Positions 36,917 to 43,860 of a DNA stretch of 64,000 nucleotides are shown here, piece by piece. Position 1 is the first letter of the stretch. Every line of letters begins with the position of its first letter. Made by a program: the position numbers and the translations under genes. The stretch lies in the NCBI RefSeq assembly GCF_045037415.1, contig NZ_CP173438.1; one strand, 5' to 3'. This stretch comes from Escherichia coli. GTDB taxonomy: Bacteria; Pseudomonadota; Gammaproteobacteria; Enterobacterales; Enterobacteriaceae. The notes beneath the pieces are model-generated. The model was given only the letters and a program-made list of their open reading frames with translations. It ran no database searches and was not told the origin of the DNA.

Positions 36917-38470
36917 ATGCAAATGATTACCTCGCGACAAAACAGATTATTACGATTCCTTTTACCTCGAAGGGAATATACGACTATTGTTACGATTGCC
37001 GGCTATTTAAATGTTTCGGAAAAAACCATTCAACGTGATTTACGTTTACTTGAGCAATGGCTGGGACAATGGAGAATAAATGTTGAGAAGCGTGCTGGCG
37101 CGGGTGTGATGTTAAGCGCGGAGAATATTGCTGATTTGCTGCATCTTGATCATTTGTTGGTGGCAGAATGTGAAGAGATTGATGGTGTAATGAATAATGC
37201 CAGGCGCGTTAAAATAGCGTCGCAGTTATTAAGTGAAACACCGAATGAAACGTCGATCAGTAAATTGTCAGAACGCTATTTTATCAGCGGAGCCTCTATT
37301 GTTAATGACCTGAGAGTAATTGAGTCCTGGCTTGCGCCGTTGGGGTTATCGTTGATCCGCAGCCCAAGTGGTACGCATATTGAAGGTAGTGAAGGGCAAG
37401 TCCGACAGGCAATGGCATTACTGATTAACGGCATTATTAACCATAATGAGCCGCAAGGTGTCGTGTATTCACGTCTGGATCCCGGAAGCTATAAAGCATT
37501 AGTCCATTATTTTGGAGAGGAAGAAGTGTTATTTGTCCAGTCATTGTTACTGGATATGGAAAATGAATTAAGTTGGTCTTTGGGAGAACCTTATTACGTT
37601 AACATTTTTACTCATATCCTTATTATGATGTATCGCAACACGCACGGGAATGCGTTATCAAGAGAAGAAGATCAAACCAGGCAATATGATGAAAATATCT
37701 TTAATGTTGCCAGTCAGATGATTCATAAGATAGAACAACGAATTGCACATACATTGCCCGATGATGAAGTCTGGTTTATTTATCAATATATCATTTCATC
37801 AGGTGTGGCGATTGATGGACAAAAAGATGTTAGCATTATTTCACATATGCAGGCCAGCAATGAAGCGCGTCTGATTACCTGGCGTTTAATTACGGTATTC
37901 AGTGACATCGTGGACTGCGATTTTAGTGAAGACAGCGCATTATATGATGGCTTATTGGTGCATATTAAACCGCTGATTAACCGACTAAATTATCGTATTC
38001 ATATCCGTAATCCATTGCTGGAAGATATTAAAGCAGAATTAGCGGATGTCTGGCGGTTGACGCAATATGTGGTGAATCAGGTATTTAAAACCTGGGGTGA
38101 GAATGCGGTGAGCGAGGATGAAGTGGATTACCTGACCGTTCATTTTCAGGCTGCGATGGAACGGCAAATTGCCCGTAAACGCGTATTACTGGTCTGTTCA
38201 ACCGGAATCGGAACTTCGCATCTACTGAAAAGCCGTATTCTGCGAGCATTTCCTGAATGGACGATTGTTGATGTTATTTCAGCAGCGAATTTATCACAGG
38301 TTTTGCCTGACAATATCGAACTGATTATTTCGACCATTAATTTGCCTACAGTCACTATGCCGGTCGCTTATGTTACCGCTTTTTTTAATGATGCCGATAT
38401 TAAGCGGGTCACTGAAATGGTGATTACGGAAAAATTACATCATGCGACGTCTCGGGTCGTTGAAATTTAA
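36917..38470 (+). CDS. PRD-domain transcriptional activator (BglG/MtlR/Mga-like) of the frz-like operon
   Basis: 517-aa ORF with N-terminal HTH and a C-terminal region containing a cysteine in an EIIB-like context (VLLVCSTGIGTSHLL). Confidence 0.7.
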   Translation: MQMITSRQNRLLRFLLPRREYTTIVTIAGYLNVSEKTIQRDLRLLEQWLGQWRINVEKRAGAGVMLSAENIADLLHLDHLLVAECEEIDGVMNNARRVKIASQLLSETPNETSISKLSERYFISGASIVNDLRVIESWLAPLGLSLIRSPSGTHIEGSEGQVRQAMALLINGIINHNEPQGVVYSRLDPGSYKALVHYFGEEEVLFVQSLLLDMENELSWSLGEPYYVNIFTHILIMMYRNTHGNALSREEDQTRQYDENIFNVASQMIHKIEQRIAHTLPDDEVWFIYQYIISSGVAIDGQKDVSIISHMQASNEARLITWRLITVFSDIVDCDFSEDSALYDGLLVHIKPLINRLNYRIHIRNPLLEDIKAELADVWRLTQYVVNQVFKTWGENAVSEDEVDYLTVHFQAAMERQIARKRVLLVCSTGIGTSHLLKSRILRAFPEWTIVDVISAANLSQVLPDNIELIISTINLPTVTMPVAYVTAFFNDADIKRVTEMVITEKLHHATSRVVEI

Positions 38471-38496
38471 TGTCAGAATTTTATGAGGTATGACGA

Positions 38497-38967
38497 ATGG
38501 ACATAACAAAAATCCTGAATACGAATCGCGTTATTTTAGATATGCAAGCGACGAATAAAGCGGAGGCGATTGAAGAATTAACTAATCTTCTCAAAAAAGA
38601 TGGTGCGATCGATTGTCGGGAAACCTTTATTAAAGATGTCTGGCAGCGCGAAGCGGAAGGCTCGACTGGTTTTGAAAATCATATTGCGATCCCGCATGGT
38701 AAATCTTCAGCTGTGATTAATACTACGCTGGCAATTGGCCGTACCCGCCAGGATATTCCCTGGGAAACGCTGGATGGCAGTAGCGTGCGCTGTATTATTT
38801 TATTTGCGGTACGTCTTGAAGATCAAAATACCACCCATATCCGTTTACTTTCCCAGGTCGCGGGCGCGCTGGCGGATGATGACATCATAGAACAATTGTT
38901 AGTTGAGACGAGTCCGCAAAAAATCATTGATCTCTTTAGTCAGTATGCACAATCCGATGTCTGCTAA
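38497..38967 (+). CDS. PTS fructose-family EIIA component
   Basis: 156-aa ORF with conserved His region ...HIAIPHGKS... Confidence 0.8.
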   Translation: MDITKILNTNRVILDMQATNKAEAIEELTNLLKKDGAIDCRETFIKDVWQREAEGSTGFENHIAIPHGKSSAVINTTLAIGRTRQDIPWETLDGSSVRCIILFAVRLEDQNTTHIRLLSQVAGALADDDIIEQLLVETSPQKIIDLFSQYAQSDVC

Positions 38968-38984
38968 ATAACAGGGAGTATGTC

Positions 38985-42219: not shown

Positions 42220-42266
42220 GCCAGAAGGGCGGGGTGACCCGCCTTTTACGCAACAAGGAACGAGAT

Positions 42267-43199
42267 ATGCACTATCTGGGGTTGGATATTGGTGGGACCA
42301 AAATCGCCGCCGTTGTCATGGATGCGCATGGCTGGGAGATTCGCCGTTACCGCTGCCCGACGCAAAAGTCGACATATCAACAATTTGTCTCATGCGTTGT
42401 GGCGCTTATCGAGCAGATTAGGCGGGACGTTCAACGACCGATGCTGACAGGGATCGCCTTACCCGGCAGTATCTCGCCACTCACTGGCCTGATTAAAAAC
42501 GCGAATATTCAGGTGATTAACGGTCATGCGTTACAGGCTGATTTGCAGCAATTGCTTGGGCAACCGGTGGTGATAGCCAATGATGGTAACTGTTTCGCGC
42601 TATCAGAAGCTTGCGACGGTGCCGGGCAAGATTATGACGTGGTATTTGGTATTACGCTTGGTACGGGCTGCGGCGGTGGCATTGCCATCAAGCAACGACC
42701 GTTTATAGGGGCCTGGGGAAATGCTGCCGAATGCGGTCATATCACGTTGCCAGGCTATACGGAGCAGGAAGATGGTCCATCAGTCAGTTGCTATTGCGGC
42801 AAACACAACTGCGTGGAGTCGTTTGTTTCCGGCAGCGGTTTTAGTGAACGCTATCAACAGATGACTGGTAACTTGCTCACTCCTGCGGCGATTGTCACCC
42901 TGGCACAACGTGGTGATGCTTGTGCCATGCAGCAGGTGGCACGTTTTCGCCAACAGCTTGCCCGCACGCTGGCAACCATCGTTAACGTTGTTGACCCTGG
43001 CGTGATTGTGATCGGCGGCGGGCTTTCGAATGTGGAACTGCTTATCACCGATCTGAACGCAGAAGTCGCTCCACTGGTTTTCACCGATCAATTCACCACT
43101 CCCATTGTAAAAGCACAGCACGGCGACAGTAGCGGAATGCGTGGCGCTGCCTGGCTTGCTATGCGCAACGGAGAAGCCAATGAAACGTTCACAAATTAA
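42267..43199 (+). CDS. ROK-family sugar kinase
   Basis: Starts MHYLGLDIGGTKIAAVVMD (ROK ATP-binding motif); Cys-rich zinc motif CGHITLPG...CYCGKHNC; RBS AGGAA upstream. Confidence 0.75.
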   Translation: MHYLGLDIGGTKIAAVVMDAHGWEIRRYRCPTQKSTYQQFVSCVVALIEQIRRDVQRPMLTGIALPGSISPLTGLIKNANIQVINGHALQADLQQLLGQPVVIANDGNCFALSEACDGAGQDYDVVFGITLGTGCGGGIAIKQRPFIGAWGNAAECGHITLPGYTEQEDGPSVSCYCGKHNCVESFVSGSGFSERYQQMTGNLLTPAAIVTLAQRGDACAMQQVARFRQQLARTLATIVNVVDPGVIVIGGGLSNVELLITDLNAEVAPLVFTDQFTTPIVKAQHGDSSGMRGAAWLAMRNGEANETFTN

Positions 43200-43860
43200 T
43201 TATGTTATTGATAAAGCACATGCCATTGCGCAGACCTTCCGCGTTTGTTTGCCAGAGTTCGCCTATTTTACGGTGGATGACTGGCTGCAGCGGGAACGGG
43301 ATAACTGGCAAGAAGTGGTCGACTTACAGCTCGGTTGGGATATCACCGATTTTGGTCGTGGTGATTTCAACCAAACGGGACTAACACTGCTAACGATGCG
43401 CAACGGCGCGCTGGGGTCGGCGGCATATCCAAAACCGTATGCTGAGAAAATGTTGCAGATCCAACAAGATCAGCAGACTCCCTGGCATTTTCACACCCAC
43501 AAAATGGAAGATATCCTCAATCGGGGCGGTGGAGACTTATGCATGCAGTTGGCCTGGGCCAACGAAGCCAATCTCTGTGATGATCAACGAGTCATTACCG
43601 TGAGTGTTGATGGTCAGCGGCGTACCATGAAACCTGGTGAAACGCTGGTGCTAAAGCCGGGGCAGGGCATTTGCCTGCCGCCGCGTCTGTATCATCGCTT
43701 CTGGGCGGAAAAAGCGTTTGTTCTCGGCTGGGAAATCTCGATGGTAAATGATGACCAACACGATAATTATTTTCTTGAGCCGGGAGGACGTTTTCCGGCG
43801 ATAGAAGAAGATGAACCGGTGAAATGGTTATTGTGCGGTGAGTATGGAATTTTGCGCTAA
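43180..43860 (+). CDS. Cupin-superfamily protein (D-lyxose/mannose isomerase-like)
   Basis: ORF with WHFHTHKMEDI metal-binding-like motif; overlaps the kinase 3' end. Confidence 0.6.
   Translation: MKRSQINYVIDKAHAIAQTFRVCLPEFAYFTVDDWLQRERDNWQEVVDLQLGWDITDFGRGDFNQTGLTLLTMRNGALGSAAYPKPYAEKMLQIQQDQQTPWHFHTHKMEDILNRGGGDLCMQLAWANEANLCDDQRVITVSVDGQRRTMKPGETLVLKPGQGICLPPRLYHRFWAEKAFVLGWEISMVNDDQHDNYFLEPGGRFPAIEEDEPVKWLLCGEYGILR

Follow-up and report, generated by a model that had tools for sequence, protein, structure and literature searches.

The frz operon between yicI and yicH in Escherichia coli: a probable PTS-dependent catabolic unit with its own PRD-type activator, at what is probably an old enterobacterial locus

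A 64,000-nucleotide stretch of Escherichia coli DNA (contig NZ_CP173438.1 of assembly GCF_045037415.1; hereafter the window) was analysed for the origin and likely function of an eight-gene carbohydrate locus that lies between the core genes yicI and yicH. It is virtually certain, judged from the alignments below, that this locus is the published frz operon of the extraintestinal pathogenic E. coli (ExPEC) strain BEN2908. Taken jointly with that identity, the general reading of frz as a catabolic unit tied to the phosphotransferase system (PTS) and governed by an activator with PTS regulation domains (PRDs) is one that we hold with good confidence, no single enzymatic route being included in this judgement. 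The feature is already known as a published operon. What is added here is modest: the family of its isomerase, its prevalence, evidence for an old locus with loss by deletion, a variant that lacks the kinase, and a set of conserved regulatory elements.

The locus was assigned to frz because its alignment to the UTI89 allele, the product of diagnostic primers, its position between yicI and yicH and its absence from K-12 all agree. Identity was measured against UTI89, which stands in for BEN2908 through Table S1 of PMC12928451, in which both the coverage and the identity of UTI89 relative to BEN2908 region GR27 are given as 100%; this region, with the limits yicH..yicI, is the frz operon (7283 bp inclusive, 7227-bp feature; PMC12928451). 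From flanking stop codon to flanking stop codon (36623–43903), the window and UTI89 both measured 7281 bp and differed by 27 single-nucleotide polymorphisms (SNPs) and no indels, an identity of 99.63%. Nothing else separates the window from the published allele, and the site, the eight genes and the interval length are those of frz in avian ExPEC BEN2908 (Rouquet et al. 2009, J Bacteriol 191:4427). Primers that detect frz when avian pathogenic E. coli (APEC) are typed for virulence yield an 843-bp product (PMC6238794). In silico, they matched positions 37322–37341 (plus strand, exact) and 38145–38164 (minus strand, one mismatch at 38161), again giving 843 bp, and the mismatch under the reverse primer is itself one of the 27 SNPs. 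In RR1, a K-12-type strain, the spacer between yicI and yicH is only 52 bp long, and K-12 is scored '-' in the table of PMC12928451. An earlier reading of the window, made from the sequence only, had called the locus 'frz-like', of variable occurrence and of unknown substrate. The homology was confirmed while the wording proved too weak, as the locus is frz itself; variable occurrence was borne out by 1606 of 5426 complete E. coli genomes with frz and 3816 with yicI and yicH joined; and no publication found by our literature search names a frz sugar.

Gene families were assigned by comparing Pfam and NCBIfam scores with curated cutoffs, and the annotation of flanks and start codons was taken from the RefSeq record of a 100% identical locus in the uropathogenic strain U15A. 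The eight co-directional genes of the sequence-only reading were found at exactly 36917–43860 in both the list of open reading frames (ORFs) and the RefSeq flanks. Its labels (PRD activator, PTS components EIIA, EIIB and EIIC, two class II aldolases, ROK kinase and cupin) were all upheld by Pfam and NCBIfam, and the last of them, although right, can be narrowed to an isomerase of the D-lyxose/D-mannose family. The genes and their immediate flanks are:

34304..36622, plus strand: yicI (alpha-xylosidase), left flanking core gene, from RefSeq annotation of the U15A locus.
36917..38470, plus strand: regulator, 517 aa, for which we coined the label frzR; Pfam HTH_11, Mga HTH, PRD1, PRD2 and EIIB(Gat)-like domains.
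38497..38967, plus strand: PTS EIIA, fructose/mannitol type, 156 aa; PF00359; TIGR00848, 127 bits (cutoff 103.5).
38985..39299, plus strand: PTS EIIB, fructose type, 104 aa; PF02302; TIGR00829, 100 bits (cutoff 76.85).
39324..40415, plus strand: PTS EIIC, fructose family, 363 aa; TIGR01427, 311 bits (cutoff 157.55).
40427..41278, plus strand: class II aldolase 1, 283 aa, the more divergent paralogue; PF01116, 252 bits.
41359..42219, plus strand: class II aldolase 2, 286 aa; PF01116, 305 bits.
42267..43199, plus strand: ROK-family sugar kinase, 310 aa; PF00480, 249 bits.
43180..43860, plus strand: cupin of the D-lyxose/D-mannose isomerase family, 226 aa; PF07385, 289 bits (cutoff 20.8).
43870..43895, plus strand: terminator-like hairpin and T-run between the cupin gene and convergent yicH, found by scan; 9-bp stem with 6 GC pairs, then CCTTATTTTT.
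43904..45613, minus strand: yicH (AsmA family), right flanking core gene, from RefSeq annotation of the U15A locus.

The ORF list began the ROK and cupin frames at 42234 and 43141, and the RefSeq starts in U15A are 42267 and 43180. Intergenic gaps are 11–80 bp, the ROK and cupin genes overlap by 20 nt, and none of the eight ORFs is truncated when compared with its orthologues at 25 other loci. The short gaps, a single promoter-like region upstream and a single terminator after the last gene are consistent with a predicted single transcript. GC content at third codon positions (GC3) is 0.39 in the regulator, 0.42 in EIIA and 0.35 in EIIB, and then 0.58 in EIIC, 0.59 and 0.53 in the aldolases, 0.54 in the ROK kinase and 0.52 in the cupin. 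The step within the operon, 36917–39299 versus 39324–43860, is sharp; it is weaker in Citrobacter, where EIIB stands at 0.34. An ancient mosaic is one possible cause.

The first gene of the operon encodes the regulator. Its EIIB-like domain matched PF02302 with 24.5 bits (cutoff 23.6) over residues 422–498. Orthologues shared 70–96% identity overall and were 517–523 aa long in every case, and H233 and H278 (PRD1), H349 and H409 (PRD2) and C427 (EIIB-like domain) were invariant in 26 of them. The nearest solved relatives were LicT for the PRDs and AtxA and AcpB for the helix-turn-helix (HTH) domains. Alignment to LicT and GlcT was limited to the PRD part (residues 191–411) and scored far below the cutoffs. 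Pfam detected no CAT RNA-binding domain in the regulator and no C-terminal EIIA-like domain (no PF00359 match), the chain ending at residue 517. We therefore rejected the RefSeq name of this protein, a BglG/LicT-type antiterminator, given that the HTH and Mga domains are present and the CAT domain is absent. Judged by its domains, the regulator is a DNA-binding PRD activator. MtlR, LicR and ManR of Bacillus and the Mga/AtxA class likewise combine HTH and Mga domains with two PRDs that carry conserved histidines, and MtlR, LicR and ManR also share an EIIB(Gat)-like domain with a conserved cysteine and a gene located beside the cognate PTS genes. Unlike these three proteins, the frz regulator lacks a C-terminal EIIA(Mtl/Fru)-like domain, and its gene is the first of the operon presumably under its control.

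EIIA, EIIB and EIIC each exceeded curated fructose-subfamily TIGRFAM cutoffs, while the NCBIfam equivalog models for FruA, MngA, Frv and Frw all scored below cutoff for the frz PTS proteins. As read from the translations, EIIA contains an AIPH motif with His66 and EIIB an N-terminal ACTAGIAHT motif with Cys9, the histidine and cysteine of these motifs being the phospho-acceptors in the respective families. EIIC is the most conserved gene of the cassette (90–97% amino acid identity in other genera and 99% in a second Escherichia species).

The four remaining proteins are enzymes of recognizable families. Aldolase 1 passed no NCBIfam cutoff. Aldolase 2 matched NF006042, the uncharacterised PRK08185 subfamily, with 526 bits (cutoff 405) and the ketose-bisphosphate aldolase model TIGR00167 with 259.5 bits (cutoff 215.6); neither aldolase reached the NCBIfam equivalog cutoffs for fructose- or tagatose-bisphosphate aldolases. 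When aligned to AgaY (1GVF), 7NCC and the Thermus aldolase 1RV8, both retained the Asp-His, GTAHG and HGGSG motifs; in aldolase 1, compared with 7NCC and 1GVF, these metal and phosphate motifs read Asp-His, GTAHG and LHGGSG. The closest NCBIfam model to the ROK kinase was the fructokinase PRK09557 (319 bits, cutoff 443), and NagK PRK13310 scored 246 bits (cutoff 380). Its nearest solved structures are of the NagK type, and a DIGGTK motif (ATP) and a CYCGKHNC motif (zinc, CxCGxxxC) are present. The cupin aligned over its full length with the D-lyxose isomerase of E. coli O157:H7 (3KMH/3MPB; E 5e-64, ~50% identity), and its H103, H105, E110 and H172 coincided with the same residues of the HxH..E..H metal motif of 3KMH. 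It scored 271 bits against the equivalog NF051472, below the cutoff of 350, and RefSeq names it 'D-lyxose/D-mannose family sugar isomerase'. By profile and alignment, then, the cupin is a member of the D-lyxose/D-mannose isomerase family PF07385. The O157:H7 enzyme, Z5688, shares this family and the metal motif with the frz cupin and is a paralogue at a different locus; in O157:H7 the yicI–yicH site is empty. Z5688 is active on free D-lyxose and D-mannose (PMC6746899), and enzymes of this kind interconvert free D-lyxose with D-xylulose, D-mannose with D-fructose, and L-ribose with L-ribulose, substrates whose C2 and C3 hydroxyls lie on the same side (PMC6746899).

Comparison with the unclassified Escherichia species MOD1-EC7003 indicates that the frz genes are under purifying selection. 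Aldolase 2 was 100% identical at the amino acid level, with 79.5% identity at four-fold degenerate sites, and the other genes were 95–99% identical with 76–92% at four-fold sites; selection is indicated because amino acid identity remains at 95–100% while synonymous sites have diverged by 8–24%.

We aligned the DNA upstream of the regulator gene with orthologous regions from loci that have differing upstream neighbours, 25 loci being used for the promoter and leader. The predicted elements are:

36712..36726, plus strand: CRP-like site TGCGAGCATGATCAC, 8 of 10 matches to TGTGA-N6-TCACA; putative function.
36745..36753: conserved TGTGATCTG block, from the upstream alignment.
36795..36813, plus strand: palindrome CTGTCCGG-ATTAC-GGACAG, ~10 nt 5' of the -35 element; candidate activator site.
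36823..36850, plus strand: predicted sigma-70 promoter, with -35 TTGTTG, a 16-nt spacer and -10 TATATT.
36871..36893, plus strand: predicted hairpin GAAGCUC-loop-GGGCUUC in the leader (5' untranslated region, UTR), from minimum-free-energy folds.

The CRP-like block was kept in orthologous upstream regions of at least eight genera, the Superficieibacter version being TGTGATCGCTATCAC. TGTCC-N8/9-GGACA was present in nearly all orthologous regions that covered it, whichever gene lay upstream; a terminator scan had registered this palindrome merely as a hairpin. GTATTGT and TTATATTTA were at least 90% conserved over the 25 loci, with a spacer of 16–17 nt. A generic promoter scan missed this conserved promoter, the -35 element being weak, and found fewer sites than in shuffled controls. 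In minimum-free-energy folds, ~20 of the 25 orthologous leaders formed the hairpin at an equivalent place, with stems that vary while pairing is kept (GGAGCG/CGCUUC, GGAGCA/UGCUUC, GAAGCUU/AAGUUUC and GGGGUUGUU/AACAGCCC), and a conserved Shine-Dalgarno sequence, AAGGG, precedes the regulator gene. An outer pairing is also conserved, between the 5' end of the predicted UTR (CAGAGAU or CACGGAUU) and AAUCUGUG just 5' of the Shine-Dalgarno sequence. Rfam gave no match in the leader region, and tRNA-Sec was its sole match in the whole window. A sigma-54 promoter (TTGCA and TGGCA near 36860) was considered and rejected by eye, since the GG/GC spacing is wrong and the strings are not conserved, and also since the regulator has no sigma-54 activation domain. 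In four Citrobacter loci (L017, L022, L024 and L025), the leader hairpin is immediately followed, within the predicted 5' UTR, by an ERIC-like insertion of ~125 bp or longer; in L017 the aligned stretch does not reach the insertion's 5' end.

On the most likely reading, frz would be a substrate-inducible, PTS-dependent catabolic unit. EIIA (through His66), EIIB (through Cys9) and EIIC would take up and phosphorylate a sugar that the enzymes carry to triose phosphate. The cupin and the ROK kinase would convert a free lyxo- or manno-configured aldose to a 2-ketose and phosphorylate it, and the two zinc-type class II aldolases would cleave a ketose phosphate to dihydroxyacetone phosphate (DHAP) and an aldehyde. 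Joint action of the cupin and the kinase on a free aldose is suggested by the overlap of their genes. Fructose-family EIIs usually yield ketose-1-phosphates, and ROK kinases of the Mak/NagK type phosphorylate free hexoses. Transcription would start near 36857 from the weak sigma-70 promoter, driven by the operon's own PRD activator from its candidate site, the palindrome at 36795–36813. The logic of PRD activators is taken from MtlR, ManR and LicR of Bacillus. By analogy with them, the idle cognate EII would phosphorylate the activator and keep it silent; when substrate drains this phosphate and HPr, in the absence of preferred PTS sugars, phosphorylates PRD2, the activator would be switched on. 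The CRP-like site may add catabolite control. We infer where the promoter and the sites for the activator and CRP lie, how phosphorylation exerts control and in which sequence the enzymes act.

Several enzymatic routes would fit such a unit. In the first, which we favour tentatively and regard as a substantial possibility, a ketose-1-phosphate made by the PTS and a ketose-6-phosphate made by the isomerase and kinase would converge on a 1,6-bisphosphate via housekeeping kinases. In the second, possible but doubtful, the aldolases would cleave the PTS-made ketose-1-phosphate directly and the free aldose would be salvaged by the isomerase and kinase; this route fits a free-sugar isomerase and kinase as well as a dispensable kinase, and it requires a ketose of at least 8 carbons. 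The third, a linear sequence of aldose-6-phosphate, isomerase, kinase and aldolase, seems quite unlikely, and so to the same degree does any route other than these three. A long shot is that frz, rather than having been acquired by one pathotype, is an ancestral enterobacterial yicI–yicH cassette for a rare, possibly higher-carbon ketose, whose 1-phosphate, made by the fructose-type PTS, would be cleaved by the aldolases to DHAP and a free lyxo- or manno-configured aldose that the cupin, together with the optional ROK kinase, then salvages. If true, direct cleavage of a ketose-1-phosphate would be a PTS-linked pathway design not yet described, and a rare, possibly higher-carbon ketose would explain why the usual sugar panels gave no substrate.

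Known systems offer partial precedents. YdjI of K-12 belongs to the same family as the frz aldolases (6OFU match) and provides a precedent for monophosphate cleavage: this class II aldolase works on ketose-1-phosphate (PMC11194214) and forms or cleaves higher-carbon ketose-1-phosphates from or to DHAP and an unphosphorylated aldehyde. The ydj cluster, however, has major facilitator superfamily (MFS) transporters and a PfkB kinase and, unlike frz, neither a PTS nor a cupin isomerase. In the galactitol, N-acetylgalactosamine and tagatose pathways of E. coli (GatY/KbaY, class II tagatose-1,6-bisphosphate aldolases), a PTS-delivered phosphorylated hexose ends in a class II ketose-bisphosphate aldolase, and both frz aldolases align with AgaY (1GVF) with the metal ligands kept. 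In contrast to these pathways, frz has two PF01116 paralogues in place of GatY and GatZ, includes a free-sugar isomerase, relies on a kinase of the ROK type with none of the PfkB or PfkA type, and has aldolases that fall below the tagatose and fructose equivalog cutoffs. An island of Salmonella enterica (L009, GCA_025759645.1) consists of MFS, mutarotase, Lyx_isomer, class II aldolase, PfkB and a zinc-dependent alcohol dehydrogenase, with a DeoR regulator. As in frz, the cupin isomerase stands directly beside a class II aldolase and a sugar kinase, and this pairing supports a functional tie of the isomerase family to class II aldolases. The L009 cluster differs from frz in its permease uptake, its PfkB rather than ROK kinase, its single aldolase and its DeoR regulator. 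Its layout is the classic design that leads from aldose to ketose to ketose-phosphate and on to DHAP and an aldehyde. The L009 island bears an integrase, its Lyx_isomer is 62% identical to the frz cupin, and the cluster is uncharacterised.

A number of points weigh against the catabolic reading as framed above. The metabolic interpretation rests throughout on membership in families, and the ROK kinase, both aldolases and the isomerase all fall below NCBIfam equivalog cutoffs. A free-sugar isomerase and kinase are ill-suited to a simple route from a PTS-phosphorylated sugar; ROK kinases are not the usual makers of 1,6-bisphosphates; and many species retain the other seven genes without the ROK gene, which is hence not essential to the core pathway. 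None of the three routes explains the constant retention of two aldolase paralogues. The regulator lacks the EIIA-like domain of MtlR, LicR and ManR, so that the analogy in phospho-control is incomplete, and neither the promoter nor the CRP and activator sites go beyond prediction. An old locus also leaves unexplained the mosaic history hinted at by the step in GC3 from EIIB to EIIC. Finally, the published phenotypes were obtained in media with no identified Frz sugar, which a sensory role fits at least as well.

It is also possible, though somewhat doubtful, that frz is mainly a sensory or regulatory PTS branch in which phosphorylation of the EII and PRD proteins reports an environmental cue and alters the expression of other genes, such as the fim switch and neighbouring yicJI, the enzymes being minor. 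Strains deleted for frz are described as less fit in serum, in the gut and, when oxygen is restricted, in late stationary phase, and their lower adhesion and invasion are attributed to a shift of the type 1 fimbriae switch to OFF (PMC12928451, PMC8777976, PMC6238794 and PMC6727828). Reviews of the primary work report frz phenotypes in late stationary phase in LB, under oxygen restriction and in serum, and a shift of fimS to ON, and identify no sugar (PMC8777976, PMC6727828 and PMC12928451); this speaks for a sensory role, as does the resemblance of the regulator's N-terminal domains to the virulence regulators Mga, AtxA and AcpB. On the other hand, each of the five enzyme genes is intact and strongly constrained by purifying selection, and the enzymes travel with the PTS genes as one cassette through at least eight genera, most of them non-pathogens. 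In the abstract of the 2009 Rouquet study, the metabolic enzymes as well as the activator are said to be needed for the phenotypes. The sensory and catabolic readings are not mutually exclusive.

The distribution of frz in E. coli bears on its origin. The 1606 matching genomes make up ~30% of the complete RefSeq genomes, 1601 of them holding at least 80% of the interval, and the best matches per record stood at ≥99% identity in 1319 cases and at 95–99% in 288. One of the 1611 matching places for the interval lies on a record labelled plasmid. The 3816 genomes with adjacent flanks were found with a joined-flank query, in which an identity of 94.6% reflects the gapped spacer, and they include O157:H7 and a K-12-type strain. 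Together, the frz and empty alleles account for 5422 of the 5424 genomes with flanks, so the yicI–yicH site is essentially biallelic in E. coli. In a table of 22 strains, frz is present in APEC O1, IMT5155, RS218, IHE3034, UTI89, 78-Pyelo and CFT073, in the adherent-invasive (AIEC) strains LF82 and NRG857c, in the enteropathogenic (EPEC) strain E2348/69 and, at 98.1% identity, in one commensal; it is absent from chi7122, O157, O26, O111, H10407, E24377A, 042, 55989 and 2009EL-2050 (PMC12928451). Because the intestinal pathogen E2348/69 and a commensal carry it, frz tracks lineage rather than pathotype in these 22 strains. The frz-positive reference strains are of phylogroup B2 and the negative ones of A, B1, D or E.

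The junctions of the operon with the core genome were compared with the K-12-type empty site, which defined two features:

36636..36668, plus strand: hairpin after yicI, homologous in the K-12 empty site; left edge of the frz-specific DNA.
36669..43903: DNA of frz-positive genomes, absent at the K-12-type empty site, ~7.2 kb.

In the 52-bp K-12 spacer this hairpin reads GCCGGGTACG..CGTACCCGGC, and the window diverges right after the homologous hairpin, up to the yicH stop codon. Over the segment 32524–36645, which includes yicI, identity to K-12 is 97.5%. The junction edges showed no direct repeats, integrase, tRNA or insertion sequence (IS), and a search of the flanks for a recombination scar revealed 96–98% identity to K-12 right up to the junctions with no local excess. 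In strain HS-02, all that is left between yicI and yicH is the regulator gene's first 266 bp with the region upstream of it, a remnant which shows that loss by deletion does happen.

For a comparison beyond E. coli, loci from other species were checked by tblastn with the window proteins. Cupin homologues of ~70–85% identity were found in Citrobacter, Raoultella, Salmonella, Klebsiella, Phytobacter, Kosakonia, Superficieibacter, Izhakiella, Kluyvera and Buttiauxella. The cassette lies between yicI and yicH-xanP in Escherichia sp. MOD1-EC7003 (95–100% amino acid identity), in 14 Citrobacter loci, in two Superficieibacter species and in Phytobacter ursingii; it adjoins yicH-xanP alone in Kosakonia sp. 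S29 and P. diazotrophicus, and an uncultured Enterobacteriaceae genome (L034) gave a yicH match and no xanP match. Raoultella, two further Kosakonia species, Izhakiella and Buttiauxella have it in different surroundings. At four-fold sites, identity between E. coli and Citrobacter was 39–56% for the frz genes and 40–52% for yicJ, yicI, yicH and xanP; between E. coli and Escherichia sp. it was 76–92% for frz and 83–91% for the flanks. Because these values match in both comparisons, frz has diverged to the same extent as the core genes beside it, and a closer donor copy of frz was found in none of the sampled genera. The cassette is thus probably an old enterobacterial locus at yicI–yicH that was lost by deletion in most E. 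coli lineages.

A seven-gene form, in which aldolase 2 is followed by 49 bp and then the cupin gene, lacks the ROK kinase. It occurs in species of the Citrobacter freundii complex, both Superficieibacter, Izhakiella and Buttiauxella warmboldiae (loci L017, L019, L020, L022–L025, L031–L033, L036 and L037). The kinase is accessory because this form does without it, and the core consists of the regulator, EIIA, EIIB, EIIC, the two aldolases and the isomerase.

Two loci had unusual neighbours. In one Salmonella enterica (L008, SRR22857687), the whole cassette lies upstream of yicJ-yicI, with an empty yicI–yicH site, and adjoins an Arm-DNA-binding integrase fragment and a transposase HTH fragment; this arrangement is evidence that the cassette can also move. 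In Raoultella (L006, 11527–19616), the neighbouring cluster comprises DeoR, an ATP-binding cassette (ABC) sugar transporter, ribulose-phosphate 3-epimerase, ROK and PfkB. It resembles the allose/psicose (als) system, possibly a hint of rare-hexose metabolism nearby.

An alternative to an old locus is a recent, ExPEC-specific islet that was brought horizontally into phylogroup B2 and inserted between yicI and yicH. Such an origin could account for the presence of frz in only 30% of complete genomes and in every ExPEC and AIEC reference strain compared with BEN2908, for the low GC3 of the regulator, EIIA and EIIB (0.35–0.42, against 0.52–0.59 in the other five genes), for the integrase fragment beside the Salmonella cassette, on its selC side, and for the other contexts in Raoultella, Izhakiella, Buttiauxella and two Kosakonia species. 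The junctions, however, are free of mobility genes, tRNA and direct repeats, the same site is occupied in another Escherichia species, many Citrobacter, Superficieibacter and Phytobacter, and in both comparisons frz and the flanks are equally diverged at synonymous sites. The sampled genera, moreover, hold no cupin copy closer than ~80% in amino acid sequence, HS-02 retains a deletion remnant, and the presence of frz in EPEC E2348/69 and a commensal points to lineage rather than pathotype. We consider a recent islet unlikely.

A reading of frz as a fructose-like PTS cluster that is cryptic, decaying and now without function, as are frv, frw and fry of K-12, is very improbable: no substrate has been named and a few genomes have IS insertions or deletions in frz, but at least 80% of the interval is kept in 1601 of the 1606 matching genomes, in most of them at ≥99% identity, the window ORFs are all intact, non-synonymous change is very low relative to synonymous change, and deletion phenotypes have been published (PMC12928451, PMC8777976). 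Decay was seen in a few strains; WGS1363 has the interval broken up across 8057 bp, and in E166 it is interrupted by an ISVsa5 insertion.

The origin of frz matters for its use as a marker. Diagnostic PCR schemes include it as a marker that publications associate with fitness and virulence in ExPEC and APEC, and among avian strains it was found in 5% of the non-pathogenic versus 75% of the most virulent ones (PMC12928451, PMC8777976, PMC6238794 and PMC6727828). Its conservation at the same site argues that frz marks lineage, having been kept in B2 and some others, and not a recent gain of virulence, a distinction of consequence wherever frz serves as a virulence marker. The isomerase family, the seven-gene core and the conserved promoter, palindrome and leader hairpin narrow the search for the substrate and for the link to fimbriae.

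Elsewhere in the window, positions 1–32523, located 5' of tRNA-Sec (32525–32619, minus strand), have no K-12 counterpart and form a selC-associated island. Its features include:

15848..16897, minus strand: RhuM-family gene.
18314..24815, minus strand: type I restriction-modification genes hsdR/S/M.
26763..27518, plus strand: beta-barrel outer-membrane protein.
27693..29195, plus strand: sulfatase-fold phosphoethanolamine transferase.
31036..32226, minus strand: P4-type integrase.

IS66-like sequence is also present in this island, and its segment 7600–32520 was matched over at least 80% of its length in 13 of the 5426 complete genomes. On the other side of frz, at 57235–57313, ~77 bp replaces ~1.16 kb of the K-12-type strain RR1, and by coordinate mapping the missing segment would cover dinD.

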